NCBI GenBank assembly: GCA_028718785.1
Contig: JAQULB010000002.1
Coordinates: 20,750 to 84,749 of the forward strand
Origin: Minisyncoccota bacterium
GTDB taxonomy: Bacteria; Patescibacteriota; Minisyncoccia; Minisyncoccales; CG1-02-41-26
Length of the DNA: 64,000 nucleotides
Reading direction: 5' to 3'
In this document: piece after piece, positions 3,630 through 62,747 of the stretch
Layout of the letters: each line of letters begins with the position of its first letter
Position numbering within the stretch: the first letter of the stretch is position 1
Translations under genes and position numbers: made by a program
Notes under the pieces: generated by a model
Seen by the model: only the letters and a program-made list of their open reading frames with translations
Database searches by the model: none
Told to the model about the DNA's origin: nothing

Positions 3630-3636
3630 TTTTTTA

Positions 3637-4003
3637 GTGGAGATGGAGAGATTGAACTCTCGTCCAAAAACAACTTACCTAACAATACTACAAGCTTAGT
3701 TAATTTAAAAGTTTAAAGGCCTAAAATATAAAAATTAACAAAATTTTTAGGTCTCGATCCCAAATTTTTCAGCAAATAGTTTGGGAGGGCTATTTGCCAA
3801 TCCTAATAATTTGTCACCTTGTTCTGTTTATTAGAAATCAACAGGCAAGATGGCCGCGACTTAAAGCCGGGCAGGCCTACGCTACTGCGTAAGCTGGTTG
3901 TGCGTATGTGTATGTTGCACTTATGTTTTTCCAAAAGTTTTTCGAGATTCTGGAGCTCGGCTTGCTCATTAAATAACTCATTCTTGTCAAAACATGCACC
4001 CCC
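3637..4003 (-). ncRNA. ssrA: tmRNA (SsrA)
   Basis: On the minus strand the 5' GGGGGUG pairs with the 3' CAUCUCC-A, including a G3:U pair. T-arm is GGACGAGAGUUCAAUCUCUCC. An internal tag frame reads ...ATYTYAQPAYAVA-stop. smpB is adjacent. Confidence 0.85.
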
Positions 4004-17560: not shown

Positions 17561-18232
17561 ATGAAAAGAGAATTTAGTAAAAACGATTTTTTTACCCAAA
17601 AAGCCAAAGAACAGGGCTATCCAGCCCGTTCGGTTTATAAGCTTCAAGAAATAGATGAAAAATTTAATCTCTTGCAAAAGGGCTTTTTTGTTTTAGATTT
17701 GGGAGCGGCCCCTGGGTCTTGGCTTTTGTATATTGCCAATAAAGTTTCAATGACTGGGAAAGCGGTGGGGGTGGATATTTTAGATTTAAATACAGAATTA
17801 CCCAGCAACGCAATCTTTGTTAAAAAGAGTGTTTTAGACACCGATTTTTTAGAAAGCGGAGCCCTGGGGTCCGCCAATTTTAATGTGGTGGTTTCAGACA
17901 TGGCCCCAAACACAACCGGACTTCGCGAGGTTGATGTGGCTAATTGCTTGGAGCTAACCCAAAAGGCCTTGGAAATCGCCAAAGAGGTTTTAGTTGGGGG
18001 TGGCCTTGCCACGCCGAAGCCGAGCGAAGCCCGCCTTCGCCCTAGCGGGCTTCGGCGAGGCGAAGGCGGGGATTTTGTTTGTAAAATTTTTGAAGGTCCT
18101 GGCACTGACAATTTTGTGAAAGAAACAAAAAAATATTTTAAAATGGTAAAAAGATATCGTCCCAGAGCTGTTCGGCGTGGTAGCAAAGAATTTTACCTCA
18201 TCGCCAAAGGATTTAAGGGCAGTAAAATTTGA
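17561..18232 (+). CDS. rlmE: 23S rRNA U2552 2'-O-methyltransferase RlmE (FtsJ)
   Basis: GYPARSVYKLQEID, VLDLGAAPGSW, VVSDMAPNTTG, KIFEG. A GC-rich insert splits the GGxF motif. Confidence 0.85.
   Translation: MKREFSKNDFFTQKAKEQGYPARSVYKLQEIDEKFNLLQKGFFVLDLGAAPGSWLLYIANKVSMTGKAVGVDILDLNTELPSNAIFVKKSVLDTDFLESGALGSANFNVVVSDMAPNTTGLREVDVANCLELTQKALEIAKEVLVGGGLATPKPSEARLRPSGLRRGEGGDFVCKIFEGPGTDNFVKETKKYFKMVKRYRPRAVRRGSKEFYLIAKGFKGSKI
18001..18071. repeat. GC-rich structured insert in rlmE
   Basis: Two interleaved complementary pairs: cgccgaagcc (18012-18021) with ggcttcggcg (18048-18057), and cccgccttcgcc (18030-18041) with ggcgaaggcggg (18059-18070). Encodes LATPKPSEARLRPSGLRRGEG. Confidence 0.8.
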
Positions 18233-19636: not shown

Positions 19637-20515
19637 ATGAAAAATAGCAACTTAAAACAAGAGATTGTTTGGCTGTTAAATGAAAAATATGGGGGAAAAT
19701 TGACAGATAAAGCGAAAAAGGATATAACTCGTTTGCGAGCAGGAGAACCGATTGATTATATTATTGGTCACAAAAATTTTTGTGGGTGTAAAATTGACTT
19801 ACGATACAAACCGCTTATCCCAAGAGACGAAACAGAATATTGGGTGCAAGGCAACTGCTTGCCTTGCACGGGCGTTTTAGGCGGAGCTCCTGCGGAGCCG
19901 TTAAAAAACGCCCCGGAAAATGCTAAAGATACCTCAATAGGCAAAAAGATACCCACTAGATTTTTAGACATTTTTGCGGGGTCTGGGTGTTGTGGGATTG
20001 CGGTTTTAAAAAATGTTGCAAACAGTCATTGTGATTTTGTGGATATTAATGATAACTGCTTAAAACAAATTCGGTTTAATTTAAAACTGAATGGAATTGA
20101 TAAAAAAAGATACCGCATTATAAAATCAAATATTTTTGAAAAGTTGAAGGGGAGGGCCTGCCCTGAGCGAGCGAAGCGAGTCGAAGGGTATGATGTCATT
20201 TTAGCTAATCCGCCATATATTGGGCTTGGCGAGAAAAGCAAAGTTCAAGAATCGGTTTTAAATTTTGAGCCAAGAATAGCTTTGTTTGCCAAAAATAACG
20301 GTTTGTATTTTATTGAAAAATTTTTAAAGCAAGCCAGAAGTTATTTGGCTCCAGAAGGTGTTATTTATATGGAATTTGGCTATAATCAAAAAATGGACAT
20401 TGAAAAATTGCTTAAAAAATTTAAATATCAAAATTTTGAATTTCACAAAGACCAGTTCGGAAAATGGAGATGGGTGATGGTCAAAAAACATGTTGGTGTT
20501 GACAAATTGAAATAA
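19637..20515 (+). CDS. prmC: release factor glutamine N5-methyltransferase PrmC (HemK)
   Basis: GEPIDYIIG, FAGSGC, ILANPPYI. Two GC-rich inserts. Confidence 0.8.
   Translation: MKNSNLKQEIVWLLNEKYGGKLTDKAKKDITRLRAGEPIDYIIGHKNFCGCKIDLRYKPLIPRDETEYWVQGNCLPCTGVLGGAPAEPLKNAPENAKDTSIGKKIPTRFLDIFAGSGCCGIAVLKNVANSHCDFVDINDNCLKQIRFNLKLNGIDKKRYRIIKSNIFEKLKGRACPERAKRVEGYDVILANPPYIGLGEKSKVQESVLNFEPRIALFAKNNGLYFIEKFLKQARSYLAPEGVIYMEFGYNQKMDIEKLLKKFKYQNFEFHKDQFGKWRWVMVKKHVGVDKLK
19844..19916. repeat. GC-rich double-hairpin insert in prmC
   Basis: gtgcaaggca/tgccttgcac and gggcgtttt/aaaacgccc stems. Encodes QGNCLPCTGVLGGAPAEPLKNAP. Confidence 0.75.
20156..20189. repeat. GC-rich element (ccctgagcgagcgaagcgagtcgaagggt) in-frame in prmC
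   Basis: 28/29 identical to intergenic 45801-45829. Encodes ACPERAKRVEG immediately before the NPPY motif region. Confidence 0.85.
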
Positions 20516-27972: not shown

Positions 27973-30360
27973 ATGGCAGAACAAGAAAAAAAATACGAGC
28001 CAAATAAAATTGAGCCCAAGTGGCAGAAATATTGGGAGAAGGAAGGGTTAAACAGGGCAAAGGACTTTGACAAAAATCCCGCCCAAAGTGCTACGCATAA
28101 TGAGGCGGGCAGGCCAAAGTTTTATTGTTTGGATATGTTCCCATACCCCTCTGGCGCTGGATTGCATGTGGGCCATCCTAAGGGCTACACTGCCACTGAT
28201 ATTATTTCTCGCTATAAGAGAATGAATGGCTTTAATGTATTTCATCCAATTGGCTGGGACGCTTTTGGCTTACCAGCAGAAAACTATGCCATTAAAACCA
28301 AAGTCCACCCCAATGAAAGCACGCATAAAAATATAGCTCATTTCAAAGAGCAGATTAAGTCATTGGGGTTTTCTTATGATTGGGAAAGAGAAATAGACAC
28401 CTCGTCACCCGAGTATTACAAATGGACGCAATGGTTTTTTCTTTTTCTTTACAAAAATGGCTGGGCATACAAAGCAAAAGCAGCCGTTAATTGGTGCGAT
28501 TCCTGCCAAACAGTTTTAGCCAACGAGCAAGCGCAAGATGGAAAATGTGAAAGATGCTCTAGCAATGTTTTACAAAAAGATTTGGAGCAGTGGTTTTTTA
28601 AAATAACTGATTTTAGCGAGGAGTTATTAGCTGGCTTGGATAAGATTGATTGGCCAGAACCAATTAAAATAATGCAAAAAAATTGGATCGGCAAATCTGA
28701 AGGATATGAGATAGATTTTAACATAAAAAATAGTGTAACAAAGTTAGCCGATCGGCACAGTTTGTTACAGATTAGAGTTTTTACAACAAGGATAGATACA
28801 ATTTTTGGCTGTACTTATTTGGTAATAGCCCCTGAACACGAGATAGCCAAGAATCAAGAATTGGGAATTAAGAATTATGAAGAAGTAAAAGATTACGTTG
28901 AGACAGCGAAAAAGAAAAGCGAACGGGACAGGCAAGCTGATGTAAAAGATAAAACGGGCGTGAAGTTGGAAGGCGTTACGGCAATTAATCCAGCTAATGG
29001 AAAAGAAATTCCAATTTTTGTGGCTGATTATGTTTTATCAAGTTATGGCACGGGAGCAATAATGGCAGTTCCCGCTCAAGATGAAAGGGATTTTGAGTTT
29101 GCGAAAAAATTTAATTTGCCAATTGTTGAAGTTCCAAATTCTATGGAAATGGCAGAAAAAGGCATAGCAAAGAAAAAAATAAATTATAGATTAAGAGATT
29201 GGCTGGTTTCACGCCAGCGTTATTGGGGAGCTCCCATTCCCATTGTTTATTGCGAGAAATGCGGAGAGCAGGCAGTGCCAGAAAAAGATTTGCCGGTATT
29301 GCTGCCAACAGATGTTGATTTTATGCCAACAGGCGAATCGCCCTTGGTAAAATCAAAAGAATTCCATAAAGTTAAATGTCCAAAATGCGGCGGGCCAGCT
29401 AGGCGGGAAAGCGATACTATGGATACTTTTGTTTGTTCGTCTTGGTATTTTTTTCGCTATCTTGACCATAAAAATAAAAATGAATTTGCTGATAAAAAAT
29501 TAATTGATTATTGGCTACCAGTTGATTTGTATGTGGGCGGGGCGGAACATGCGGTTTTACATCTTTTATATGCTCGTTTTTTTGCTAAGGCGTTGAAAAG
29601 AATTAGCTTGATTGGCTTTGACGAACCATTTTTAAAGCTGAGAAATGTTGGTTTAATTCTGGCCGAAGGTGGAGTAAAAATGAGCAAATCAAAGGGCAAT
29701 GTTATAAACCCTGATGATATTGTTAAAGAATACGGCGCTGATACTTTAAGGATTTACGAAATGTTTATGGGGCCTTTTGACCAAGCTATTGCTTGGGATA
29801 CAAAAGGGGTTGGGGGGGCGAGAAGATTCTTAGACAGGATATATAAATTAAAAGAAAGAGTTTCTGCTAAGAGCAGTAATTTAGAGCTTGAAAAAGCAGT
29901 TAATAAAATAATTAAAAAAGTCGGGGAAGATATTGAACAGATGAAATTTAATACAGCCATTTCTTCGTTAATGATTTTGCTTAACGAAATGGAAGGGGAA
30001 GAAGAAATTTCGGGTGATATTTTTGAAAGGTTTTTATTGCTTTTAGCGCCTTTTGCCCCGCACATCGCTGAGGAGTTATATGAAGGATTCAAGATTCAAG
30101 ATTCAAGATTCAAGAATGGATCAATCTTTGAGCAAGAGTGGCCAAAGTACGATACCGCCTTACTAAAGGAGGAAAAAGTTAATATAGTGGTTCAAATAAG
30201 CGGCAAGGCAAGAGGAGTTGTGGAAGTTGAAACAGGTGCGAGCGAACAAGAGGTTTTAGATATAGTCAAAGCAGATTCAAAGATAAATAAATGGATAGAA
30301 GGGCAAAATATTAAAAAAGTCATTTTTATCCAAAATAAATTAATTAATCTAGTTTTATAG
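27973..30360 (+). CDS. leuS: leucyl-tRNA synthetase
   Basis: PYPSGAGLHVGHPKGY (HIGH), VKMSKSKGN (KMSKS), CP1 editing domain. Start placed at the ATG at 27973. Confidence 0.95.
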   Translation: MAEQEKKYEPNKIEPKWQKYWEKEGLNRAKDFDKNPAQSATHNEAGRPKFYCLDMFPYPSGAGLHVGHPKGYTATDIISRYKRMNGFNVFHPIGWDAFGLPAENYAIKTKVHPNESTHKNIAHFKEQIKSLGFSYDWEREIDTSSPEYYKWTQWFFLFLYKNGWAYKAKAAVNWCDSCQTVLANEQAQDGKCERCSSNVLQKDLEQWFFKITDFSEELLAGLDKIDWPEPIKIMQKNWIGKSEGYEIDFNIKNSVTKLADRHSLLQIRVFTTRIDTIFGCTYLVIAPEHEIAKNQELGIKNYEEVKDYVETAKKKSERDRQADVKDKTGVKLEGVTAINPANGKEIPIFVADYVLSSYGTGAIMAVPAQDERDFEFAKKFNLPIVEVPNSMEMAEKGIAKKKINYRLRDWLVSRQRYWGAPIPIVYCEKCGEQAVPEKDLPVLLPTDVDFMPTGESPLVKSKEFHKVKCPKCGGPARRESDTMDTFVCSSWYFFRYLDHKNKNEFADKKLIDYWLPVDLYVGGAEHAVLHLLYARFFAKALKRISLIGFDEPFLKLRNVGLILAEGGVKMSKSKGNVINPDDIVKEYGADTLRIYEMFMGPFDQAIAWDTKGVGGARRFLDRIYKLKERVSAKSSNLELEKAVNKIIKKVGEDIEQMKFNTAISSLMILLNEMEGEEEISGDIFERFLLLLAPFAPHIAEELYEGFKIQDSRFKNGSIFEQEWPKYDTALLKEEKVNIVVQISGKARGVVEVETGASEQEVLDIVKADSKINKWIEGQNIKKVIFIQNKLINLVL
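28078..28109. repeat. 32-nt CCCGCC-N20-GGCGGG element, copy 3 (in-frame in leuS)
   Basis: cccgcccaaagtgctacgcataatgaggcggg; encodes PAQSATHNEAG in the same codon phase as copies 1 and 2. Confidence 0.85.
28733..28770. repeat. GCCGATCGGC-core palindromic element (variant) in-frame in leuS
   Basis: gtgtaacaaagttagccgatcggcacagtttgttacag, with tgtaacaaa/tttgttaca arms. Encodes VTKLADRHSLLQ. Confidence 0.85.
30086..30113. repeat. heptamer tandem repeat inside leuS (gattcaa x4)
   Basis: Perfect 4x7 bp; encodes GFKIQDSRFKN. Confidence 0.9.
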
Positions 30361-31703: not shown

Positions 31704-31734
31704 GTCAAATAGTGCGTGATGCTTATAATTTTAG

Positions 31735-31818
31735 TGCCGGGGGAGGGACTTGAACCCTCAAGGGCTTGCGCCCACAGCATTTTGAGTGCTGCGTGTTTCC
31801 CAATTTCACCACCTCGGC
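31735..31818 (-). tRNA. tRNA-Leu (anticodon CAA)
   Basis: Minus strand: GCCGAGG acceptor stem (one A:C mismatch), anticodon stem cagca/tgctg with loop cuCAAaa, long variable arm gggcgcaagccc, T-arm gaggGTTCAAGtccctc. CCA is not encoded. Confidence 0.85.
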
Positions 31819-36970: not shown

Positions 36971-39178
36971 CTAATAGTCGTTTTTCTTTAATTTTTCTAC
37001 GGCCTCAGATAACATTTGGCAGTATAGATTTAGGCCAATGCGGTTAACCGAGCCAGATTGCTCACGGCCCAAAATATTGCCTGCTCCTCGAATTTCCAAG
37101 TCCGCTTGCGCAATTTTGTATCCACTACCCAACTCTTCAGCTTGTTTTAAGGCAGTAAGTCGCTGTTTGGCCAAACCCTTTAAAGTATTTTTGGGATATA
37201 AAAAGTAGGCGTTGGCTTGGGTATTGCTTCGGCCAATCCGGCCTCGCAACTGATAGGCCTGGGCCAAGCCCAAGCGGGTGGCGTTGTCCACAATTAAAGT
37301 GTTGGCATTGGAAATATCTAATCCGTTTTCAATAATAGTGGTGGCTAAAAGCAAGTTAGTTTTTCCGGTTTGAAAATCGCTTAAGGCCTTTACAATTTCT
37401 TTGTCTGGCAGTTTGGCGTGCAAAACGCCAATTTTAACTTTTGATTTTTCTAACTCAAAGCGTATCAAAGTTGGCCGATCGGCACAGATTGACACACTTT
37501 TGGAAGATGGTTTTTTGTTAAGAAGTTCCTCTAACAAAAGCTTAAAGGCATTGATTGTTTCCACTCTGTTGTGCAAGAAATAAATTTGTCCGCCTCGTTT
37601 TAGTTCATTTTCAATAGCGTTTTTTATAACATCTTTTTTAAATGGTAAAATAAATGTCTTTACTGGTTTACGGCCTTGGGGAGGAGTTTGAATAAAGCTG
37701 ATTTCTTTTAAAGACGACAAAGCCAAGTAAAGAGTGCGGGGGATTGGCGTGGCCGAAAGATAAAGAATGTCAATTGAGGGATTTGTTGTTCTTAATTTTT
37801 CTTTTTGTTTAACACCAAACCTTTGCTCATCATCAATGATTAAAAGTCCCAAGTTTTTAAATTCAATATTTTTAGCTAAAACGCTATGGGTGGCAATCAA
37901 AATATCCACGTTGCCATCTTTTAAGCCCTGTAGAATTTTGGGTTTTTCGTTTTTGTTTTGAAGCCGTGAAAGTAAAGCTACTTTTACGGGCAAGCCAGTT
38001 AGCCGTTTCTGAAAAGTATTAAAATGTTGGGTGGCCAAAATGGTGGTGGGGCACATAATTACTGCTTGCTTGCTGTTTTCAGCAGCCAATGTGGCTGCCC
38101 TTAAAGCCACTTCGGTTTTGCCAAAACCAACATCCCCGCAAATTATGCGGTCAATGGGTTTTTGTTTGCTAAAATCGTTTTCAATTTCGTTTAAACACTG
38201 GGATTGGTCTGGGGTTAAAGTATAAGGAAAAGTGGCCTCTAATTTTTCGTAAATTTCTGTTTTGCTGTATGCGGGTCTAGTGGCAAGTTCCTTTAAAGCA
38301 AACATTTCCAAAAGTTCTTTGGCAAATTTTTCAGCGTCTTCTTTTATTTTATATTTTGTTTTTTGCCAAAATATACCTCCAAGCCGGGATAATTTTGGCT
38401 CAACAAAACCAAGATATCGCGTTAGCTTTCTCTCAAGCCCAACAGGCACAAAAAGTTTGTCTCCTTGGGCGTATTCTAAAACATAGTATTCTTTGGCTGG
38501 CGAAGTGGCGGAAACCTTTTCAGGGTACGCTTGTTCGCCCAGCGCGCTCACTCGCTCCTGTCCTCGGCTCGCTCTCTCACTATGTTCGAACCCTGCCCGC
38601 TCGCCTGCGGATGCCCCTGAAAAGGTTTCTGCCACTTCGCTTTCTTGAACCGTTTGTATTTCTAAGAATCGGGAGATGCCGTGGTCAAGGTGTACTAAAT
38701 AATCCCCGGTTTTTAGGCCTTTTAAATCGCTAAAGATTTTTTGGGATTTTAATTTCTTTTTTAAAACATTTTTGGCGGTTTCTTCGTTGGTTATTTCAAT
38801 TGGCAGTTTTTCGATTGTTTCAATGGTGTTGCCTAAAAAATCTAAACGAAAAGCAAAAAAGGAGTTAATGGGGAAAATTTCCACAACTCCTCCAATTTGA
38901 GAAAATTCGCCTGGCTCGGTTATTTTGAAAACTTTTTCATAGCCCATTTCATCAATTTTTTTTAAAACTTCAGAAATGTTTATTTTTTGATTTGCTTCTA
39001 AAAATAAAGTATTGTCTTGCCAAAAGGCCTGGGTTTTTTGAGATTTTTTAATATGGCTTAAATTTTCTGTAAACCAAAGAATTTCTTTTTCAAGAAAGTA
39101 GGGGGTGATACTAACAATTAAAGCGCTTTGGAGCGCTTTTTTACTTGCTAAATCCATATTATGGTTATAGTATGGCAA
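36971..39178 (-). CDS. mfd: transcription-repair coupling factor Mfd (short N-terminus)
   Basis: RNAP-interacting domain LVHLDHGI...KLFVPV, helicase motifs GDVGFGKTEVA, DDEQRFGV, RGRIGR. Carries two repeat inserts. Confidence 0.9.
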   Translation of the reverse strand: MPYYNHNMDLASKKALQSALIVSITPYFLEKEILWFTENLSHIKKSQKTQAFWQDNTLFLEANQKINISEVLKKIDEMGYEKVFKITEPGEFSQIGGVVEIFPINSFFAFRLDFLGNTIETIEKLPIEITNEETAKNVLKKKLKSQKIFSDLKGLKTGDYLVHLDHGISRFLEIQTVQESEVAETFSGASAGERAGFEHSERASRGQERVSALGEQAYPEKVSATSPAKEYYVLEYAQGDKLFVPVGLERKLTRYLGFVEPKLSRLGGIFWQKTKYKIKEDAEKFAKELLEMFALKELATRPAYSKTEIYEKLEATFPYTLTPDQSQCLNEIENDFSKQKPIDRIICGDVGFGKTEVALRAATLAAENSKQAVIMCPTTILATQHFNTFQKRLTGLPVKVALLSRLQNKNEKPKILQGLKDGNVDILIATHSVLAKNIEFKNLGLLIIDDEQRFGVKQKEKLRTTNPSIDILYLSATPIPRTLYLALSSLKEISFIQTPPQGRKPVKTFILPFKKDVIKNAIENELKRGGQIYFLHNRVETINAFKLLLEELLNKKPSSKSVSICADRPTLIRFELEKSKVKIGVLHAKLPDKEIVKALSDFQTGKTNLLLATTIIENGLDISNANTLIVDNATRLGLAQAYQLRGRIGRSNTQANAYFLYPKNTLKGLAKQRLTALKQAEELGSGYKIAQADLEIRGAGNILGREQSGSVNRIGLNLYCQMLSEAVEKLKKNDY
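37457..37500. repeat. GTGTCAA..GCCGATCGGC..TTGACAC palindromic element in-frame in mfd
   Basis: aaagcgtatcaaagttggccgatcggcacagattgacacacttt is about 95% identical to the 57214-57259 copy. Encodes (minus strand) SVSICADRPTLIRF. Confidence 0.9.
38500..38640. mobile_element. 141-bp MITE-like GC-rich element with 26-bp terminal inverted repeats, in-frame in mfd
   Basis: gcgaagtggcggaaaccttttcaggg (38500-38525) against cccctgaaaaggtttctgccacttcgc (38614-38640). Length 141 = 47 codons. Encodes ...ETFSGASAGERAGFEHSERASRGQERVSALGEQAYPEKVSATSP... Confidence 0.8.
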
Positions 39179-39570: not shown

Positions 39571-40149
39571 TTAAAGAAGCGACATAATGTTGTGGCTGGC
39601 TTTTTCTAACAAGTCAGCCATGTTTTTTTCTTCGGCTTTAGAAAATTTTTTTAAAACAAAATCTTCAGCTTTTAGGTTTGCGGCAACCGGGTTGCCGTTA
39701 GCTGGGCGAAGTCCTGTAGTGAGCCCTGCTCTACTGCTGGGGCGGATGCCGATACGGATCCTTTTAAAATTTTGGGTTTTTAGGTTATCAATAATTGACT
39801 GAACTCCGCGATGACCACCACTGCTTGAGTTTTCTGCTATTTTTATTTCTCCAAATGGCAAGTCAAAATCATCATGAACTACAATAAGCGTAGAACATGG
39901 AACGTAGAACGTAGAACATAGGGCTTCAACAGAAAAACCAGAGTTATTCATAAATATCTGGGGTTTGGCAAGTAAAACTTTTTGGCTACTAATAACTCCT
40001 TTTGAAATTTCCGCTTTGGATTTTTTGTCTAACTTAAATTTTGGGAAATTGTTTTCTTTTTGCAAAAAATCCAAAAACCTAAACCCTATGTTATGACGGG
40101 TTTTGCGAAATTTTAAACCAGGATTGCCCAAACCAACAATAATTTTCAT
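39571..40149 (-). CDS. pth: peptidyl-tRNA hydrolase
   Basis: MKIIVGLGNPG..TRHNIGF, VVHDDFDLPFG, GGHRGVQSI. Start set at the ATG giving MKIIVGL; the upstream ATGs come from the heptamer repeat. Confidence 0.9.
   Translation of the reverse strand: MKIIVGLGNPGLKFRKTRHNIGFRFLDFLQKENNFPKFKLDKKSKAEISKGVISSQKVLLAKPQIFMNNSGFSVEALCSTFYVPCSTLIVVHDDFDLPFGEIKIAENSSSGGHRGVQSIIDNLKTQNFKRIRIGIRPSSRAGLTTGLRPANGNPVAANLKAEDFVLKKFSKAEEKNMADLLEKASHNIMSLL
39679..39752. repeat. GC-rich insert in pth
   Basis: Contains hairpin cggcaac-cgg-gttgccg. Encodes SSRAGLTTGLRPANGNPVAANL between conserved RIGI and DFVL segments. Confidence 0.7.
39890..39917. repeat. heptamer tandem repeat inside pth (gtagaac/atggaac x4)
   Basis: Read directly; encodes LCSTFYVPCSTL on the minus strand. 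Confidence 0.8.
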
Positions 40150-40218
40150 GAAACATGAAACATGAAACATGAAACATATAAAAAAGTTTCAAGTTTCAAG
40201 TTATAAGTTTTAAGATTT
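40147..40218. repeat. two adjacent heptamer arrays (catgaaa x4; aagtttc-type x5) at the pth start and upstream
   Basis: 40147-40174 catgaaa x4 and 40184-40218 aagtttc, aagtttc, aagttat, aagtttt, aagattt. Confidence 0.9.
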
Positions 40219-40902: not shown

Positions 40903-42174
40903 ATGTTAAAATATCAAACACCAACAGGAATGCACGATTTGTTTCAAAAAGATTTGGAACAAGTTGCCAAAATAGAACAGTTAGCCAAAAAAATGGCGGA
41001 TTTTTACGGGTTTGAAAAAATTGAAACTCCAATTTTGGAATTTTCGGAAATTTTTGAAAAAGGCACAGGAGGTTCCACTGACATTGTAGAAAAAGAGATG
41101 TATTCTTTAAAAACTAAAGGGGGGGATCTTTTAACTTTAAGACCAGAGATAACTCCCGGGGTGGTTAGGGCTTATAGTCAAGCTGGAATGCAGAACTTGC
41201 CAAAGCCAGTCCGGCTTTGGTATTTGGGGCCTTGCTTTAGGCATGAAAGACCACAGGCTGGTAGATACAGGCAATTTAATCAGCTTGGTTTTGAAAGCTT
41301 GGGAACCCCTCATCCAATTATTGACACTATCACCATTTTAATATTTTATAACTTATTAAAATCTTTGGGTTTTAAAAAGCTAATAGTTGAAGTGAGCTGT
41401 ATTGGAGATGGCCAGTGCCGAGGAGCTTTTAAAAAGGCCTTAACAAATTATTTTCGTTCAAAAGTTTCTTCTTTATGCGCTGATTGTCGCAATAGATTAA
41501 AGAGGAATCCTTTAAGAGTTTTAGATTGCAAAGAAGAAAAATGTTGTGTTGTAAAAAAGAACGCTCCCCAAGTATTAGATTATTTATGCAAGGATTGTAG
41601 CGATCATTTTAAAAGTTTGTTGGAATTTTTAGAAGAGCTTGAGATACCTTATAGCATAAATCCTTATTTGGTGAGAGGGCTGGATTATTATACCAGAACT
41701 GTTTTTGAAATAATTGAAGACACTGAAGAAGGCAAGGTTCAGGGCTCTTTGGCGGGCGGGGGAAGGTACGATGGTTTGGTAAAGCTTTTGGGTGGAAAGG
41801 ACACTCCGGCTTGTGGAGGGGCAATGGGAGTGGAAAGAGTTATCAATTTAATAAAAGCTAAAAATAAGCAAGCAGAAAAAGAAAAACAAACTTGCGAGGT
41901 TTACTTGACTCAGGTTGGAGAATTGGCTAAAAAAAAGGCCTTAAAGCTTTTTGAGCAGTTAAGGCAAGCCAACATTAAAGCTGGAGAGGGTTTGCACAAA
42001 GAGTCATTGTCAGCCCAATTGGGAGCGGCTGACGCAATGAAAGCAAAGTATAGCTTGATTATTGGTCAAAAAGAGGCCTTAAGCAACCAAGTTATTATTA
42101 GAGAAATGAAAAATGGCCGTCAAAAAGTTGTGGATATTGATAAGGTGATTAAAGAATTAAAAAACAAAATATAA
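40903..42174 (+). CDS. hisS: histidyl-tRNA synthetase
   Basis: Class II motifs LRPEITPG, CFRHERPQAGRYRQF, GGGRYD, and an anticodon-binding C-terminus. Confidence 0.9.
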   Translation: MLKYQTPTGMHDLFQKDLEQVAKIEQLAKKMADFYGFEKIETPILEFSEIFEKGTGGSTDIVEKEMYSLKTKGGDLLTLRPEITPGVVRAYSQAGMQNLPKPVRLWYLGPCFRHERPQAGRYRQFNQLGFESLGTPHPIIDTITILIFYNLLKSLGFKKLIVEVSCIGDGQCRGAFKKALTNYFRSKVSSLCADCRNRLKRNPLRVLDCKEEKCCVVKKNAPQVLDYLCKDCSDHFKSLLEFLEELEIPYSINPYLVRGLDYYTRTVFEIIEDTEEGKVQGSLAGGGRYDGLVKLLGGKDTPACGGAMGVERVINLIKAKNKQAEKEKQTCEVYLTQVGELAKKKALKLFEQLRQANIKAGEGLHKESLSAQLGAADAMKAKYSLIIGQKEALSNQVIIREMKNGRQKVVDIDKVIKELKNKI

Positions 42175-42176
42175 AA

Positions 42177-42320
42177 AATTCTAAATTCTAATATCTAAAC
42201 TCTAAACAATATCAAATTATCAAAATACAAAATTCAAAATGAGCTCTTGTTGTTTTGAATTTAAAACATTTGAATTTTGGATTTGTTTAGGATTTAGGAT
42301 TTAGATATTAGGATTTATTT
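42177..42320. repeat. ~145-bp imperfect palindrome built from heptamer words (ttctaaa... / tttagga...)
   Basis: The left run ttctaaattctaatatctaaactctaaa is complementary to the right run tttaggatttagatattaggattta (about 25/28). Inner hairpin aaattcaaaa/ttttgaattt. Confidence 0.85.
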
Positions 42321-42322
42321 TT

Positions 42323-42637
42323 ATGGATTGTATTTTTTGCAAAATAGTTAATAAGGAACTGCCAGCGGATATTGTGTATGAAAATGAAAATGTTTTGGCG
42401 TTTAAAGATATTCACCCCAAAGCAGCTGTCCACATTTTAGTAGTTCCAAAAATTCATATTGAGTCAATAAACTCTGAAAATTCAGAAAACATTGTTGGGG
42501 ACTTGATTTTAGCGGCTAAAAATATTATAAAGAGAGATAACATCACAGGATATAAATTACTTTTTAATATTGGAAGAGAGGGCGGGCAAATGGTTGATCA
42601 TTTGCATATGCATCTTTTAGCAGGAAACCCCAGTTAA
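42323..42637 (+). CDS. HIT-family (histidine triad) nucleotide hydrolase
   Basis: CIFCKI...; HLHMHLL histidine triad. Confidence 0.85.
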   Translation: MDCIFCKIVNKELPADIVYENENVLAFKDIHPKAAVHILVVPKIHIESINSENSENIVGDLILAAKNIIKRDNITGYKLLFNIGREGGQMVDHLHMHLLAGNPS

Positions 42638-42760
42638 ACAGCTCCCTGAGGTCGTTTAACACTCGGAGCCACCCCAGTTGAATCCGCCCTTAGGCGGTGT
42701 TTCGCAGAAAGCGAAACAATTTAACGGGGTATAAGAACTTCTAAATTCATTCGTGGCTAA
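42626..42760. repeat. ccccagttaaac...gtttaacgggg hairpin element with nested ~60-nt insertion (upstream of rpsU)
   Basis: Shares accccagttaaacagctccYtgaggtcg ... ttaacggggtRtaag..ctNNtaaattc with 53248-53325. Overlaps the HIT stop codon. Confidence 0.8.
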
Positions 42761-45985: not shown

Positions 45986-48900
45986 ATGACCCAACTTGCC
46001 AAACCAATTGAAAAAATTCGCAAAAGAGATGGAAATTTAGCTGATTTTGAGCAAGATAAAATTACCAAAGCAATTGCTAAAGCATTGTCAGCCAGTGGGC
46101 AGGAAAGTCAAGAAACAGCAGAAAAGGTTTCCAACAAAGTTGTGGATTTTTTGCAAAGAAGGTTCAAAGAAGATCAAATTCCTGAAGTTGAGCAAATCCA
46201 AGATATTATTGAAGAGGTTTTAATGTTAGAGGAATTGGTTGAAGCGGCCAAGGCCTTTATTCTTTACAGAGAACAAAGAAGAGTATTGAGAGAAACAGAA
46301 GTTATTTCAGATGAAGCAGTGGAAATTTTTGAAAAATATATCGGTGAAATGGATTGGCAGGTAAAAGAAAATGCCAACATGGCTTATTCTTTGCAGGGGC
46401 TAAATCATTACGCAGTTTCTGTTTTAACAAAAAGATATTGGCTTAATAAAGTTTATCCAAAATATATAAGAGAGGCCTATAATTCTGGGGATATGCACAT
46501 TCATGATTTGGATTGTTTGGCAACATATTGCAATGGCTGGGATTTATATGATTTATTGATAAGAGGGTTTGGGGGAGTGGCTGGGAAAGTGGAAACATCT
46601 CCAGCCAAACATTTTAGAGTGGCATTGGGGCAGGTGGTGAATTTTTTCTATACAATGCAAGGTGAATGTTTTTCAAAAGATACACAAGTGTTAACGGATT
46701 CTGGGTGGAAATATTTTTTTGATGTGGCAAAAAGTGATAAGATTTTTACGCTAAATAATCAAACCAACGAAATTGAATTGCAAGAACCCTTAAAATTTTT
46801 TGAATTTGATTATAATGGCGAACTTTATAATTTTAAAACAAAAAAATTAGACCTAATGGTTACTCCCAACCACAATATGGTAGTTGACCAATATTGTCCA
46901 GGATGTTCGTTTAAGCAATTATCTCAATTTCAAGAGCAAGAAAAAGAAGTTGGAGCAGAAAATAGTTCAATTGGGGTTTTAAATCAAGTGAAAAAACAAG
47001 TTTTTGCTATTGAACCCCTTTATTATCGTAAATTTATTAAAGCAAAGGATTTTAATCCAAATCAGCATTTTGTTCCCAAGCAATCAGTTTGGATGGGGGA
47101 AGAAAAAGAATTTTTTGAGTTGCCAAGCATTGAAATTAAACAATATCGAAATTTTGGCAAAATATACGAAACAATTAAAATAGCTCCTAAAAAGATTTTA
47201 ATAAACGATTGGGTAGCCTTTTTTGGTTTTTTCTTGGCCGAAGGCAATATCTATAAAAGAATAAGAAAAAGAGAAGAAGGAAAATCATATCACGAATATT
47301 GTGTGCGGGTTTCTCAAAATCAAGGTCTGGTTAGTCAGGATTTTGAAGCAATTTTGCAAAAACTACCCTTTAATTACCGAAAAAAAATAACAGACAATAA
47401 AATTACTTTTGAAATTACTGACAAGCAACTTTTTTCTTATTTAGAGCAATTTGGCAAAGCAGGCAATAAATTTATTCCAAGCGATATTAAGAAGCTGCCA
47501 AAGGAACAATTGAAAGTTTTGTTTGATTGGATGATGAAAGGGGATGGTCATATTAGTAATGGCTTGGTGGAGTATTCTACTAAAAGTCAAAAATTAGCTG
47601 ATGATTTTCAGGAAATAGTTTTGAAATTGGGCTGGAGCGCCAACATATATAAAAGAACAAAGGGAGAGTTTGCTTGGTTTGATGTGGGCGTTTCAATGGC
47701 AAAGCATTTTAGATTTCAGCCAGAGAGTGTGCAAAAAGTTTTTTATCAGGACAAAGTTTATTGTTTAGAGGTGCCAAACCATACTTTGTATGTTAGAAGG
47801 AACGGAAAGGCCTGTTGGAGCGGTAATTCAGCTGGGGCGCAGGCCTTATCAAGCATTGATACTTTGTTAGCGCCCTTTATTAGGTATGATAGTTTAGATT
47901 ATGCTCAGGTAAAACAAGCAATGCAGGAGTTTTTATTTAACTGCGCTGTGCCCACAAGGGTTGGGTTCCAAACTCCTTTCAGTAATGTTACTTTAGATGT
48001 TCATCCATCTCTTTCTTTTGCCAAACAGCCAATTATTATTGGAGGCAAGCCCCAAAAAGAAACCTACGCTGAATTTCAAGAAGAGATGAATATGTTTAAC
48101 AACGCCTTTTTTGAAGTAATGATGCAGGGCGATAAAAACGGACGGCCGTTTACTTTTCCCATTCCCACAATAAATATAACCAAAGATTTTCCCTGGGACG
48201 ATTCAAAATTGGATTTAATGTGGCAAGCAACCGCTAAATACGGCATTTGTTATTTTACAAATTTTATTCAATCAGAGATGAAACCAGAGGATGTTAGAAG
48301 TATGTGCTGTCGGCTTCGGCTTGACAATAAAGAGCTTTACAAAAGAGGCGGGGGCTATTTTGGCGCAAACCCTCTAACCGGCAGTTGTGGCGTGGTTACA
48401 ATCAACCTTCCTCGGCTTGGTTATTCAACTAAAACTAAAAAAGAATTTTTTGAAAAATTAGCCAATATAATGGATGTGGCGCGAGATTCTTTGGAAATAA
48501 AAAGAAAAGCCCTTGAGGATTTGATAAAAAAAGGGCTTTACCCATATTCAAAAGTTTATTTATCGGGCATTGAAAAAATGCGAGGTAAATATTTTGGCAA
48601 TCATTTTTCAACCATTGGTTTACTGGGACTTAACGAATGTTTGCTCAATTTTATGGGTGAGGATATTGGCTCAAAAAACGGGCAGGCCTTGGCTTTGGAG
48701 GTGCTGGACTTTATGAGAAATAGAATTATTGGTTATCAAAAAGAAACCGACAACTTATATAATTTAGAGGCCACGCCCGCTGAAGGAACAAGCCACAAGT
48801 TAGCTTTAAAAGATCAAGAAAAATGTCCGGGCATTATACAAGCAGGCACAAAAGAGGCTCCATATTATACCAATAGCTCTCAACTGCCAGTTAATTACAC

Positions 48901-49309
48901 TGATGATATTTTTCACACATTAGAGCTTCAAGACGAACTGCAATGTAAATATACGGGAGGGACTGTTCAGCATTTGTTTTTGGGCGAGCAAATAACTGAT
49001 ATTTCCAATATGAAGGCCTTGATAAAAAAAGTGTTTGAGACATTTCATCTGCCTTATATTACTTTAACCCCAACATTTTCTATTTGTCCATCGCACGGAT
49101 ATATATCCGGAGAACACTGGACTTGCCCAAAGTGCACCATTGAACAGCCCTGCGAGGTTTATTCAAGAATAGTTGGGTATATTAGACCAGTAATGCAATG
49201 GCATAAAGGAAAAGCCCAAGAGTTTAAAGAGCGAAAAACTTTTCAAGTGCCTCAAGTTGTAGAAAAAATTTATGAAAATAGGGGGGTTACAGAAGTTAAC
49301 ATTGATTGA
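45986..49309 (+). CDS. nrdD: anaerobic ribonucleoside-triphosphate reductase NrdD, interrupted by an intein
   Basis: ATP-cone IRKRDGNLADFEQDKI; C-terminal Zn site CPSHGY...CPKC; glycyl-radical motif SRIVGYIRP. The extein is about 720 aa once the 387-aa intein is removed. Confidence 0.9.
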   Translation: MTQLAKPIEKIRKRDGNLADFEQDKITKAIAKALSASGQESQETAEKVSNKVVDFLQRRFKEDQIPEVEQIQDIIEEVLMLEELVEAAKAFILYREQRRVLRETEVISDEAVEIFEKYIGEMDWQVKENANMAYSLQGLNHYAVSVLTKRYWLNKVYPKYIREAYNSGDMHIHDLDCLATYCNGWDLYDLLIRGFGGVAGKVETSPAKHFRVALGQVVNFFYTMQGECFSKDTQVLTDSGWKYFFDVAKSDKIFTLNNQTNEIELQEPLKFFEFDYNGELYNFKTKKLDLMVTPNHNMVVDQYCPGCSFKQLSQFQEQEKEVGAENSSIGVLNQVKKQVFAIEPLYYRKFIKAKDFNPNQHFVPKQSVWMGEEKEFFELPSIEIKQYRNFGKIYETIKIAPKKILINDWVAFFGFFLAEGNIYKRIRKREEGKSYHEYCVRVSQNQGLVSQDFEAILQKLPFNYRKKITDNKITFEITDKQLFSYLEQFGKAGNKFIPSDIKKLPKEQLKVLFDWMMKGDGHISNGLVEYSTKSQKLADDFQEIVLKLGWSANIYKRTKGEFAWFDVGVSMAKHFRFQPESVQKVFYQDKVYCLEVPNHTLYVRRNGKACWSGNSAGAQALSSIDTLLAPFIRYDSLDYAQVKQAMQEFLFNCAVPTRVGFQTPFSNVTLDVHPSLSFAKQPIIIGGKPQKETYAEFQEEMNMFNNAFFEVMMQGDKNGRPFTFPIPTINITKDFPWDDSKLDLMWQATAKYGICYFTNFIQSEMKPEDVRSMCCRLRLDNKELYKRGGGYFGANPLTGSCGVVTINLPRLGYSTKTKKEFFEKLANIMDVARDSLEIKRKALEDLIKKGLYPYSKVYLSGIEKMRGKYFGNHFSTIGLLGLNECLLNFMGEDIGSKNGQALALEVLDFMRNRIIGYQKETDNLYNLEATPAEGTSHKLALKDQEKCPGIIQAGTKEAPYYTNSSQLPVNYTDDIFHTLELQDELQCKYTGGTVQHLFLGEQITDISNMKALIKKVFETFHLPYITLTPTFSICPSHGYISGEHWTCPKCTIEQPCEVYSRIVGYIRPVMQWHKGKAQEFKERKTFQVPQVVEKIYENRGVTEVNID
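46667..47827 (+). mobile_element. intein with LAGLIDADG homing endonuclease domain in NrdD
   Basis: Starts at Cys (MQGE|CFSKDTQVLT), block B TPNHNMVV, LAGLIDADG motifs VAFFGFFLAEGN and LFDWMMKGDGHI, ends ...LYVRRNGKACWSGN|S. 1161 nt = 387 aa. Confidence 0.85.
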
Positions 49310-49984: not shown

Positions 49985-50941
49985 ATGCCTCAGTCCAAAA
50001 TCTTTTTTATTTCCTGCCTTTGTTTTATTGGCAGTATTTTTATTTGTTCGTTTATTTTTTTAAACTCACCCCCAAAGAAGTTAAACTCCTTCCAAAGCTC
50101 TGCAAGGAGTTTAACTCCTTGCAGTTCTGTTAAAGAAAAATTTAGGGAAGTTATTAACACTAATTTGCCAAATCCCCAATCAGCTATTTTGGCTGGCATA
50201 TTGCTTGGAGATAAAGCCAGTTTTAGTGGCGAGTGGAAGCAAAAACTATCAAACACTGGCACAAGCCACATAGTGGCGGTTTCGGGAATGAATATTGTTA
50301 TGCTGTCTCAAATTTTAGTTGTTTTGGGGGTGGCTTTGGGGCTTTATCGAAGGCAGGCCTTGTTTTTTTCTTTAATTTTAATTTGGCTTTTTATTGCTTT
50401 AATTGGTTTTCAGGTGTCAGCTGTGAGAGCTGGAATCATGGGTTCAATTTTAATTGTTTGCTCTCTTTTGGGCCGGCAAAATGCCAGTTTTCGGGCTTTG
50501 GTTTTAGCAGTGGCTGTAATGTTGGCAATAGATCCAACATTGTTAAGGTATAGTTTAAGCTTTCAGCTTTCGGTTTTAGCCACTCTGGGGCTTATTCAAT
50601 TAAGCGGGGTTATAAAAAGTAAGCTTTCTAAGTTGAAAATCTTTAGAAGCAATAAAGAACTTACAGAAATAATTTCAGCCACCATATCTGCTCAGATATT
50701 CACCTTACCGCTTTTAATTTACACTTTTAACGCTGTTTCTTTGGTTGGTTTGCTTGTTAATATCTTAATTGTGCCGTTATTATCCGTGGTGATGGTTTTG
50801 GGAATTATATTTTTAATCGGCGCTTTAGTTTACAACCCCTTGGGAATTATATTGGGTTGGCTGGTTGGAATTTTACTTTCTTTCATTGTCTGGGTAATTG
50901 ATATATTTTCTAAAATTCCATTTGCCATTTTAAGGTTTTGA
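49985..50941 (+). CDS. comEC: ComEC/Rec2-family competence membrane protein (competence domain only)
   Basis: TGTSHIVAVSGMNIVML signature; polytopic. Confidence 0.7.
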   Translation: MPQSKIFFISCLCFIGSIFICSFIFLNSPPKKLNSFQSSARSLTPCSSVKEKFREVINTNLPNPQSAILAGILLGDKASFSGEWKQKLSNTGTSHIVAVSGMNIVMLSQILVVLGVALGLYRRQALFFSLILIWLFIALIGFQVSAVRAGIMGSILIVCSLLGRQNASFRALVLAVAVMLAIDPTLLRYSLSFQLSVLATLGLIQLSGVIKSKLSKLKIFRSNKELTEIISATISAQIFTLPLLIYTFNAVSLVGLLVNILIVPLLSVVMVLGIIFLIGALVYNPLGIILGWLVGILLSFIVWVIDIFSKIPFAILRF

Positions 50942-57061: not shown

Positions 57062-57213
57062 AATGTATATAATAAAAAATGCCTTTCCATATATATTGGA
57101 AGGGCATTTATATTATAGAAAGGCGATTGGGGCATTTGAAAGGGAATTTGAAGGGGTACTTGGAAGACATTTGGAAGGCATTTTATGTATACTTTATTTA
57201 TAGAAGTGAGTTT

Positions 57214-57259
57214 AAAAGCGTGTCAAAGTTGGCCGATCGGCACGGATTGACACACTTTT
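57214..57259. repeat. GTGTCAA..GCCGATCGGC..TTGACAC element, left flank of PaaX-like module 2
   Basis: aaaagcgtgtcaaagttggccgatcggcacggattgacacactttt, 42 nt upstream of the ATG. Confidence 0.9.
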
Positions 57260-57300
57260 AAGTTTAGTGATAAAGTAAAAAATAAATAGAGAATAGAAAT

Positions 57301-57903
57301 ATGAAGTATTCTTTCCAACAAAAGAAAAGGTCTGTCACTTATAAACTTTTCAGCAAAGGCATAGACGCAACAACCCATATTTTATTAGCCTTGTATGAAA
57401 ATACCCAGTTAGCTAGAGAAGGTTTTCTTAGAGGTTGCCCTCAATATTCTGGTTTTGGATTAGCAAGAGCGGTATTTGGGAAAGATAGTTATCCACAGCC
57501 CAAAAAAGAAGCAATCCGTACCGATCTTTCTCGTTTGCAAAAAGAAGGTTTGATAAAAAAAGACCCAAAACAAAAAATTTATTACTTAACTGATAAGGGA
57601 AAAGAACTTGTAAGCTACATCGAAAATCGTTTTTTAATTTTACAAGAACCTTGGGATAAAAAGTTTCGTGTTGTTATTTTTGATGTGCCAGAAAAGAAAA
57701 GATATTGGAGAGTTTTCTTAAAAAGAGAGTTAGAATTAATGCAATTTCAACAACTCCAAAAAAGTGTTTACATTGGCAAGTATCCTTTGCCAGCAAGCTT
57801 GATAAAAGAAATAGAGGCCGATAATATGGGGGAGTTTGTTTATATTTTTACAGCGGAGAATATTGACAGGCAAGATGAGATTTTAAAAATGCTAAATGAA
57901 TAG
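57301..57903 (+). CDS. PaaX-family protein: wHTH + Cas2-like central domain (paralog 2)
   Basis: LSRLQKEGLIKKD...LTDKGKE (wHTH), then PWDKKFRVVIFDVPEKKR...LQKSVYIGKYP. Homologous to 7761-8318. Confidence 0.7.
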   Translation: MKYSFQQKKRSVTYKLFSKGIDATTHILLALYENTQLAREGFLRGCPQYSGFGLARAVFGKDSYPQPKKEAIRTDLSRLQKEGLIKKDPKQKIYYLTDKGKELVSYIENRFLILQEPWDKKFRVVIFDVPEKKRYWRVFLKRELELMQFQQLQKSVYIGKYPLPASLIKEIEADNMGEFVYIFTAENIDRQDEILKMLNE

Positions 57904-57941
57904 TGTGTCAATCCGTGCCGATCGGCACGGATTGACACACT
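57902..57941. repeat. perfect 40-bp palindrome of the same family, right flank of PaaX-like module 2
   Basis: agtgtgtcaatccgtgccga|tcggcacggattgacacact; overlaps the stop codon. Confidence 0.95.
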
Positions 57942-58022
57942 ATTTAATAAAGAAATTAGCAACGGGGTTGACAAATAGATGTGGTTTTGATAGGTTTGCT
58001 GTAAGTAAATAAAATAATAAAT

Positions 58023-61550: not shown

Positions 61551-62450
61551 ATGGCTTGGCCGGGGTTTCAGGATAATGGCGATACATTAACCGACTTGCG
61601 TACAAATTTAACTTGGCAAAAAGATGCTTTAAGCTCTATAAACAATTTTGGAGCCAGTACCACTCAAGACAATGCTGTTGATTTTATAACAGGACAAAAC
61701 AGCGATTGGCGCTTGCCAAATTTTAAAGAGTTAGCCAGTTTGTTTAGCTATGCCCTCCCCAATCCCGGAGTGTGGAGCGGATTTTTAAACATAAAGCCAG
61801 AAAATTATTGGTCAATAAGCAAAAGAATGATTAACGCTCCCACTTGGGGCATACCTCCCCGGTACAGTGGCTGGTCTTTTAATTTCTTAAATGGAATAGT
61901 TGAAAATAATATTTATGACTTGGGGCAAGACAATAATTTTTATTCTTTTATGGCCACTAAAAATCAAGGAATCCCCGGTGGGCTATCGGGTGATGATGAT
62001 TTTGATTTTACCGACAATAATGATGGCACAATAAAAGACAACAAAACTGGCTTAATGTGGCTTAACGCAAATTTATCCCATGTAATGGGCAATCGCAAAA
62101 ATTGGAATTCGGCTTTTATGCTTGCTAATAATGTTGCTTTATGCAACGACGGAACTTTGCAGGGCAATGAAAACAAAGCTGGGGATTGCTTGGCTAATGG
62201 GGGAGTAAAATATGATGACTGGCGATTGCCCAATGTTCAAGAGTTAATGGAAATAACTAAACTGGACAATCAGCCCGGGATTCCTTCAATTTTGCCAAAC
62301 TTGAGCTTGGGTGTTTCTTTCTACTGGACTGGCACAATGTTTGACGCAAATAATGTTTGGTATGTGGGAGATGGGTTTTGTTTTGGTATGGTTAATTACA
62401 GGGCAAAAATTGGCGAGGAGTTTAATGTTCAGCTAGTGCGGGAGGAGTAA
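61551..62450 (+). pseudogene. DUF1566 (Lcl C-terminal domain-like) protein, apparently 5'-truncated
   Basis: Two DUF1566-type modules (..TNLTWQKD..DWRLPNFKELASL.. and ..TGLMWLN..DDWRLPNVQELMEI). The frame stays open upstream to 61467 without a start or signal peptide, and it abuts the R-M island. Confidence 0.55.
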
Positions 62451-62526
62451 CCGTGTCAAAAGTTTGCCGACCTGCGCTACGCCGAAGGCTCCAGCAAGGC
62501 GAGTCGGCGCAGATTGACACGCTTTT
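62451..62526. repeat. long (nested) variant of the palindromic element, inverted relative to 52883-52958
   Basis: ccgtgtcaaaagtttgccgacctgcgctacgccgaaggctccagcaaggcgagtcggcgcagattgacacgctttt starts 1 nt after the DUF1566 stop. Confidence 0.9.
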
Positions 62527-62747
62527 GGTTTGATCTTTAGGTGGGGGAATAATTTTATAAAAAAAAGGAGAAACAGCATAATTGCTAATGGGGAAAGGCG
62601 GCGACCTTAAAACCATTTTTTGTTTATGCGAGTTTCTCCTATAGAGGAGAAGGGCAGGTTGGGCGAAAGCTGTCAAAATTCCGTGGGAGATGGATATTTT
62701 GACGACTTTAGGCCTGCCCCTCTTTTTAAAAAATTTTTAAGGCGCTT

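Follow-up and report, generated by a model that had tools for sequence, protein, structure and literature searches.

An in-frame 141-nt palindromic element of foreign composition in a length-variable loop of Mfd from a Minisyncoccota bacterium

The stretch analysed in this study, hereafter the window, comprises 64,000 nt of the genome of a Minisyncoccota bacterium, a member of the Patescibacteria or candidate phyla radiation (CPR; contig JAQULB010000002.1, positions 20,750 to 84,749), and contains a 141-nt element (38500-38640, minus strand) inside mfd, the gene for the transcription-repair coupling factor. The interpretation that we prefer, with a probability of roughly 55%, is that the element is an orphan and recently acquired piece of palindromic hairpin DNA of foreign composition, which is tolerated as a disordered loop of Mfd in the manner of a Rickettsia palindromic element (RPE) or a mitochondrial GC cluster. 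The element has the anatomy of a long hairpin, is read in frame with mfd, is absent from the closest relatives and lies in a hypervariable loop of the protein, and unrelated hairpins occupy the same site in other genomes. The 141-nt element points to a broader and apparently undescribed habit of CPR genomes; in limited searches of the literature we found no description of such elements in Patescibacteria.

The element is bounded by two arms of 26 nt each, which are complementary at 25 of 26 positions (96%) and are separated by 89 nt. The left arm (GCGAAGTGGCGGAAACCTTTTCAGGG, 38500-38525), which is the 3′ arm in the mRNA sense, encodes ..YPEKVSATS, and the right arm (CCCTGAAAAGGTTTCTGCCACTTCGC, 38615-38640) encodes SEVAETFSG; the arms fail to pair at one position, an A.C mismatch when read as mRNA and a G.T mismatch on the plus strand. 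The core between them (38526-38614) is non-palindromic overall, carries repeated GAGCGAG-like motifs on the coding strand and encodes ASAGERAGFEHSERASRGQERVSALGEQA. The GC content is 61.7% for the element and 65.2% for its core, as compared with 35.7% for the whole window, and no comparable inverted-repeat pair was detected in shuffles of the window. The boundaries of the element are exactly the outer ends of the inverted repeat, the DNA on either side being ...CAAGAAA and CAGCCAAAGAA.... After folding as mRNA-sense RNA, the element gave one long hairpin of -70.7 kcal/mol (z = -7.06, none of 200 shuffles being equally stable), and the same sequence folded as DNA gave z = -6.4. An earlier examination of the bare sequence by a model (hereafter the sequence-only reading) had noted near-perfect inverted repeats around a GC-rich core, and this description is borne out. 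The coordinates that it gave for the left arm hold, but the right arm, which it placed at 38614-38640 (27 nt), has to be trimmed to the 26 nt of the repeat proper.

The length of 141 nt corresponds to exactly 47 codons, and the frame of mfd passes through the element without a stop, as had been claimed. The reading of the element begins at codon 180 in phase 1 and covers residues 180-227 of the protein, where it is flanked by ...HLDHGISRFLEIQTVQE and (T)AKEYYVLEYAQGDKLFVPV. Three of the six frames are open, and the only long reading frames that cross the element are the host frame and its antisense. The 47 encoded residues include 8 Glu and 4 Arg, are rich in Ala, Ser and Gly, and are acidic in total, in agreement with the earlier description of an Ala/Gly/Glu/Arg/Ser-rich stretch added to the RNA polymerase (RNAP)-interacting domain (RID).

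The host gene mfd (36971-39178, minus strand) encodes a short CPR-type transcription-repair coupling factor of 735 residues from a TTG start, while the deposited protein MDD5738564.1, from a 162-kb contig of a metagenome-assembled genome labelled Candidatus Pacebacteria/Paceibacterota, is 728 residues long. Its identity is supported by the matches to solved structures of Mfd from E. coli, Thermus and Mycobacterium (E about 1e-133 to 2e-133), by the Pfam domains CarD_TRCF_RID, DEAD and Helicase_C (PF02559, PF00270, PF00271) on its relatives, and by the helicase motifs of the superfamily-2 translocase, which are invariant across 120 Mfd homologs. The window Mfd aligns with residues 121-198, 464-501, 505-832 and 836-988 of E. 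coli Mfd. This short form, about 660-735 residues, is typical of the clade, with counterparts limited to residues 121-198 plus 464-988 of the E. coli protein; the whole clade thus seems to lack D3, the autoinhibitory D7 and the greater part of the UvrB-homology module.

The RID covers about residues 155-260 (38399-38716, minus strand) and is predicted to form a five-stranded barrel. A first AlphaFold model of the window Mfd, based on 15 sequences, was weak, with a mean predicted local distance difference test score (pLDDT) of 57.7, but a second model (AlphaFold2) with 120 homologs reached a mean pLDDT of 76.2 and more than 90 in the helicase core. In the latter model the RID strands are residues 160-163, 167-177, 229-235, 241-245 and 252-255, which agrees with the Tudor-like fold described for this domain (PMC3001067), and the element forms the loop between strands 2 and 3, with a pLDDT of about 30 for residues 185-225. 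The insert is accordingly modelled as a low-confidence loop between two strands. In the HMMER alignment V177 of the window Mfd corresponds to E. coli L499, a residue of the RNAP interface at which the substitution L499R abolishes RNAP binding (PMC3001067), and the insert starts two residues further on. At this position I, L, V or E covaries with an Arg in the β1 domain of RNAP (PMC3001067); I/L/V forms one of the two covarying classes described there, and Val at 177 thus fits a functional RNAP interface. Judging from alignment and model, the element appears to lie near the RNAP contact surface, yet in a loop that evolution lets expand freely.

This tendency to expand was evident from the comparison of homologs. 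Among 120 CPR Mfd proteins the strand 2-3 loop is 9 to 63 residues long (median 22), the window Mfd having the longest, and the commonest and basal state is a loop of 14 residues (IGIYNGQQTINKEQ and similar). The segment interrupted by the element, which had been called conserved in the sequence-only reading, therefore turned out to be the loop of Mfd that varies most in length within this clade. The two closest relatives have Mfd proteins (P0002 and P0003) that share 88% and 86% identity with the window Mfd, and both are without the element. Their loci are syntenic (pth-mfd-dprA), and the DNA can be aligned on both flanks of the element but not through it. Precise removal of the 141 nt leaves ...SRFLEIQTVQE-TAKEYYVLEYA..., with a loop of 16 residues. 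From these alignments the element is a lineage-specific insertion and not ancestral sequence. The high GC content in an AT-rich genome, together with the near-perfect arms, indicates that the event was recent.

A position so close to the RNAP-interface residue raises the alternative that the insert has been selected for a function, either as an RNA stem that serves as an RNase III site or as an obstacle to ribosome or RNA polymerase and thereby tunes mfd, or as an acidic loop that modulates the recruitment of Mfd at the β1-binding surface of RNAP. The stem is very stable, the same loop is enlarged in many CPR Mfd proteins, and RNase III binds the similarly built Correia elements, which it cleaves or protects (PMC2649163). 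However, the insert is unique to one genome, the inserts of other lineages are unrelated to it in sequence and length, and neither conservation nor a match in Rfam was found; the predicted peptide is unstructured. We consider selection for such a function quite improbable. No Rfam family matched the element at the gathering threshold, a cutoff relaxed to E = 10 brought up noise only, and neither terminator nor promoter signals exceeded chance at it. In the mRNA sense no U-run comes after the hairpin, and none of the sites scored there was terminator-like, so that termination of mfd transcription is not expected.

Some other classes of element were also considered. Known RNA families, introns and ribozymes were rejected for lack of a match. 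An intein was rejected without a dedicated test, since 47 residues are too short and the motifs are lacking. Likewise without dedicated tests, the target of a diversity-generating retroelement is unlikely, as there is no template repeat in the window, and so is an integron attC site, as the ends lack the GTTRRRY/RYYYAAC core sites.

The same position of Mfd carries hairpins in other genomes. In at least six other CPR lineages (loci L008 to L013) the RID loop contains a hairpin at the same site, each different in sequence from the others, and none is related in sequence to the 141-nt element. L008 carries a GC-rich hairpin of 62 nt (-46.9 kcal/mol), and L009 and L010 carry different stem-loops, in all three cases nested within an AT-rich insert. 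L011 has a stem-loop with z = -2.9, and L012 a nested GC hairpin of 36 nt (z = -4.4) that encodes PEGKPSASYGAG; the Mfd variant of L012 is indexed in 78 blocks of the contig collection. The hairpin of L013 (10511-10555; z = -5.5) is of the type AAGGAGYTWARCTCCTT with a perfect stem of 16 bp, and recurs in the window with 2-3 mismatches as AAGGAGTTTAACTCCTT (50075-50120, in the segment 50075-50135). The window copy of this palindrome is located inside an open reading frame (ORF) for a membrane protein (49985-50941), in which it encodes ..KKLNSFQS..; the Mfd loop of one relative contains ..RKELNSFQS.., and the peptides ..KKLNSFQS../..KELNSFQS.. recur in the Mfd loops of several relatives. The sequence similarity suggests that the AAGGAGYTWARCTCCTT/AAGGAGTTTAACTCCTT hairpins represent a family common to CPR genomes at differing insertion sites. 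As the AAGGAGYTWARCTCCTT type is present in the Mfd loop of L013 and in another gene of the window, some hairpin families seem to move between genes.

The recurrence of unrelated hairpins at the turn between strands 2 and 3 is best explained by the tolerance of this site, while a site preference of the insertion process is conceivable as well. As a tentative extension, which we hold possible but would not rely on, CPR genomes might carry diverse short palindromic hairpins and routinely translate them as loops of conserved housekeeping proteins. The strand 2-3 loop of Mfd would then be a site where such hairpins land repeatedly, the lineages examined having at least seven types there, and the 141-bp element would be the largest and youngest of them, its 26-bp stem perhaps placing the mfd mRNA under RNase III.

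The RID loop is also the site of an AT-rich, repeat-like insert of the type AAATTTCAAATTTTAAA...CAAATTCCAATGA, which is found in many relatives (L003 10480-10560, L004 10490-10565, and L008 to L010), encodes peptides such as NFKFQILNFKTNSNDEISKQ and can have hairpins nested in it. Downstream of hisS, the window contains a similar AT-rich inverted repeat (42161-42338).

Several results weigh against our interpretation. The sequence is known from one metagenome assembly. In the 64-kb window neither a second arm with up to 3 mismatches nor, by low-stringency BLASTN, a second element was detected, and a repeated mobile family is not demonstrated by the single copy in roughly 64 kb examined. Direct repeats of 3 nt or more abutting both arms are absent, the nearest candidate being TTCTT at offsets of 6 and 1 nt. 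Local alignments between the element and the other GC-rich hairpins were within the expectation from shuffles. We also scanned public collections, none of which includes the window's own genome, using 20 of the 21 arm bases for 185,579 GTDB representative genomes and the JGI metagenome contigs and an 18-mer for IMG/VR. The matches were 2 in GTDB (Sphingomonadales and Akkermansia), 1 in JGI (a contig with 68% GC) and 2 in IMG/VR, all of them without a partner arm and attributable to chance, in unrelated GC-rich genomes. BLASTN against phages and plasmids returned nothing beyond actinobacterial records that match over about 30 nt (E = 0.4). At the protein level, an exhaustive phmmer search with the in-frame 48-residue peptide gave no match in 1.84 billion representative proteins, a library with one representative per 50%-identity cluster, which may conceal inserts that the same genome has in proteins conserved elsewhere along their length. 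A word-indexed protein search with the six-frame concatenate and the 48-residue peptide was blank as well, but it missed P0001, the deposited protein, in which the peptide is present verbatim; being blind to short or low-complexity inserts, it was given no weight. Finally, the interpretation presupposes that the element would be translated, rather than removed or bypassed, and that Mfd would still work with its insert. An mfd mRNA with a near-perfect 26-bp stem may, by analogy, be a substrate of RNase III or an obstacle for the ribosome.

The same searches bear on the label MITE (a miniature transposable element with inverted repeats) that the sequence-only reading had attached to the element. 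A canonical MITE would be a non-autonomous derivative of an insertion sequence (IS), mobilised in trans through recognition of the 26-bp ends by a transposase and present in several genomic copies. The small size of 141 bp, the near-perfect terminal inverted repeats at the exact ends, the lack of a transposase or other coding capacity of its own and the foreign GC content all agree with this label. With about 64 kb examined and the other hairpin types being single-copy per locus of 15-22 kb, a family of low copy number could escape notice. In contrast, no target-site duplication was found, nor a second copy in the window or the scanned collections, no exact match to 20 of 21 arm bases in these collections was accompanied by a partner arm, and no parent IS with matching ends is present in the window, as judged by the arm search with up to 3 mismatches. 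Without flanking duplications, ordinary cut-and-paste transposition is disfavoured. The label is left unproven, and we regard a canonical MITE as improbable. The search for the arms that the sequence-only reading had proposed, as run on the window and the public collections, yielded no further copy or arm-related sequence. As contrary signs that reading had named a lack of other copies or arm-related sequences together with conservation of the segment in related Mfd proteins; copies are missing in what was searched, but the relatives, far from conserving the segment, do not have it.

Perfect inverted repeats are known to arise by template switching. The element might accordingly be a one-off product of repair or replication, either filler DNA at a break or a template switch that made a 26-nt inverted duplication around a GC-rich stretch of low complexity. 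Such an origin would accord with the orphan status of the element in everything searched, with the missing target-site duplication and with the low-complexity GAGCGAG-like repeats in the core. On the other hand, the window contains no donor for the core or the arms, and the clean boundaries coincide with the ends of the inverted repeat. Moreover, many different hairpins occur in the same loop and in other genes of several lineages, and two or more of the hairpin families are present at more than one locus, a pattern that a population of hairpin elements fits better than repeated accidents. We therefore rate a one-off product as rather unlikely.

An assembly artefact or a chimera in the metagenome-assembled genome is hardly credible. 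The element has been seen in a single assembly, its protein cluster consists of one member from one contig, and 141 is the largest default k-mer of a common metagenome assembler, though the match to the element length is possibly a coincidence. Against this, the element is exactly in frame and stop-free in an otherwise intact gene, its arms differ at one position around a non-palindromic core, unlike fold-back artefacts, and independent assemblies from JGI, ENA and NCBI contain analogous hairpin inserts at the same codon position.

Under the preferred interpretation of a tolerated hairpin insertion, a hairpin-forming DNA segment would have entered the part of mfd that codes for the strand 2-3 loop of the RID, the surface loop most tolerant of indels. 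With a length of 3n and an open frame, the product would be a full-length Mfd with a disordered excursion of 47 residues from the strand 2-3 turn, and the survival of the element would be due to its length being a multiple of three and to the absence of a stop in the frame in use. Selfish or neutral hairpin DNA would persist in a coding sequence only where the protein tolerates it, and in a genome with little non-coding DNA insertions would survive mainly at such harmless sites. The element would have arrived by some mobilisation mechanism acting on DNA hairpins; candidate routes are mechanisms that act on single-stranded hairpins, or recombination or gene conversion as proposed for the mitochondrial GC clusters (PMC8811140).

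Among the known systems, the RPEs match the element in behaviour. They insert in frame in many Rickettsia genes, with ten families and 44 insertions in R. conorii (Ogata et al. 2000, summarised in PMC10969869). The shared features are a length of about 100-150 bp, hairpin formation, in-frame location in a housekeeping gene at a fold-compatible site, here a predicted surface loop with a pLDDT of about 30, and a small AT-rich host genome. RPEs are translated with the host protein, and for the 141-nt element translation is predicted from the open frame. RPEs are, however, repeated families with a conserved peptide, whereas here one copy is known and its peptide is without a relative; the host belongs to a different phylum, Patescibacteria/CPR, and no sequence relationship is shown. 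The GC clusters likewise insert in frame in a coding gene, var1 of yeast mitochondria, where they give rise to size polymorphism of the protein, and they form many sequence-diverse families (PMC8811140). As GC-rich palindromes in a very AT-rich genome they are comparable with the element (62% GC against 36% for the window). The 'byp' elements of Magnusiomyces are bypassed by the ribosome (PMC8811140), but the frame of our element is open and nothing suggests a bypass. GC clusters differ in that they are usually shorter, multi-copy and equipped with AG/TAG terminal repeats, while the element is known in a single copy without terminal direct repeats.

REPINs and BIMEs consist of paired inverted REPs, each of them a small palindrome, that are mobilised by RAYT transposases; they are intergenic and highly repeated. 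The likeness of REPINs to the element lies in two inverted repeats of about 25 nt with a spacer, one long hairpin and a high GC content; no further arms were found in the window, and beyond that no search aimed at RAYT was made. Correia elements (CREEs), which the element recalls in architecture as it does REPINs, are roughly 100-155 bp long with terminal inverted repeats of about 26 bp. Their copies number in the hundreds and lie mostly between genes; they contain IHF sites and promoter halves, and a TA target is duplicated on insertion. The element shares neither this copy number nor the TA duplication, the IHF and promoter features or the intergenic location, and the sequences are unrelated. 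Transcribed Correia elements (CREE/NEMIS) of Neisseria form a long stem that is bound by RNase III (PMC2649163). QMITE1 and QMITE2 of Coxiella (PMC5896051) are also small, non-coding and bounded by inverted repeats, and ORFs can be overlapped or lengthened by them, but they have 45-78 copies per genome and terminal direct repeats, in contrast to the one copy without direct repeats described here. The element cannot be assigned to the RPE, GC-cluster, Correia or REPIN families, because the defining trait that these share, that of a repeated family, was not seen for it in the window and the collections searched.

If the preferred interpretation is correct, the concept of selfish DNA inside protein-coding genes extends from Rickettsia and mitochondria to the CPR, whose tiny and densely coding genomes offer scant intergenic room for such DNA. 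The Mfd loop beside the RNAP-contact residue would be marked as tolerating inserts of up to 47 residues, which would be useful for protein engineering and for judging what share of the RID surface RNAP binding requires. Annotators of CPR proteins should be aware that unusual length or an odd stretch of low complexity can stem from a translated DNA hairpin and not from a functional domain.

The window contains other hairpins and repeats within genes. A second lineage-specific insert of mfd (residues about 555-579; 37442-37516, minus strand) is located between the helicase lobes, at a site that is a 5-residue linker in about 82% of the 120 homologs and 30 residues long in the window Mfd. It is modelled with low confidence and is unrelated in sequence to the 141-nt element, but includes one copy (37457-37500) of a palindrome family with the centre GCCGATCGGC, the consensus AAAGYGTGTCAAAGTTGGCCGATCGGCACAGATTGACACACTTTT and the arms GTGTCAA...TTGACAC. 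The family has four short copies of about 44 nt (57899-57944, 57212-57261, 37457-37500 and 28734-28769) and one long copy (62440-62530), which has a GC-rich core of about 31 nt between the arms of the family. Two of the short copies are in frame within genes (mfd and leuS), and the long copy is within a minus-strand ORF of 84 residues (62422-62676) that is doubtful as a real gene. The GCCGATCGGC family was not found in the fetched loci of relatives. Two copies flank the ORF at 57301-57903 (200 residues, with a PaaX central Cas2-like domain; region 57205-57953), and from their position they could be operator-like sites or mere gene-boundary repeats.

In rlmE/ftsJ (ORF 17561-18232), a GC-rich in-frame hairpin (18005-18065, z = -4.7) encodes about 20 residues (LATPKPSEARLRPSGLRRGE) and separates motifs that are contiguous in E. 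coli FtsJ (PDB 1eiz). The pth gene (39571-40170) has a GC-rich lineage-specific segment, SSRAGLTTGLRPANGNPVAA (39670-39765), as an in-frame hairpin with z = -3.0, and the Pth loop that holds it differs also between the two closest relatives. Further GC-rich hairpin-prone segments are located at 12470-12560, 1745-1805, 19840-19925 and 42636-42735 (z = -3.3, -1.9, -5.1 and -4.9), in the context, respectively, of a 1040-residue class I aminoacyl-tRNA synthetase (near the C-terminus), a PGA_cap protein, a small methyltransferase and no ORF of 80 residues or more. In total 12 GC islands were counted per 64 kb of the window, as compared with 5 per 53 kb of the loci of relatives; as the difference is merely about two-fold, we do not claim a special enrichment of GC islands in the source genome. 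Two of the GC-rich islands are explained by the tmRNA gene (3635-4003, tag peptide ATYTYAQPAYAVA) and tRNA-Leu(CAA) (31734-31818), the sole Rfam/ARAGORN matches in the window.

The ORF at 45986-49309 (1107 residues) is probably NrdD, the anaerobic ribonucleotide reductase, as judged by synteny. In the relatives NrdD carries intein domains as well as LAGLIDADG homing-endonuclease domains (L003 339-3455, L004 11-3355, L012 1-2745 and L013 813-3971).

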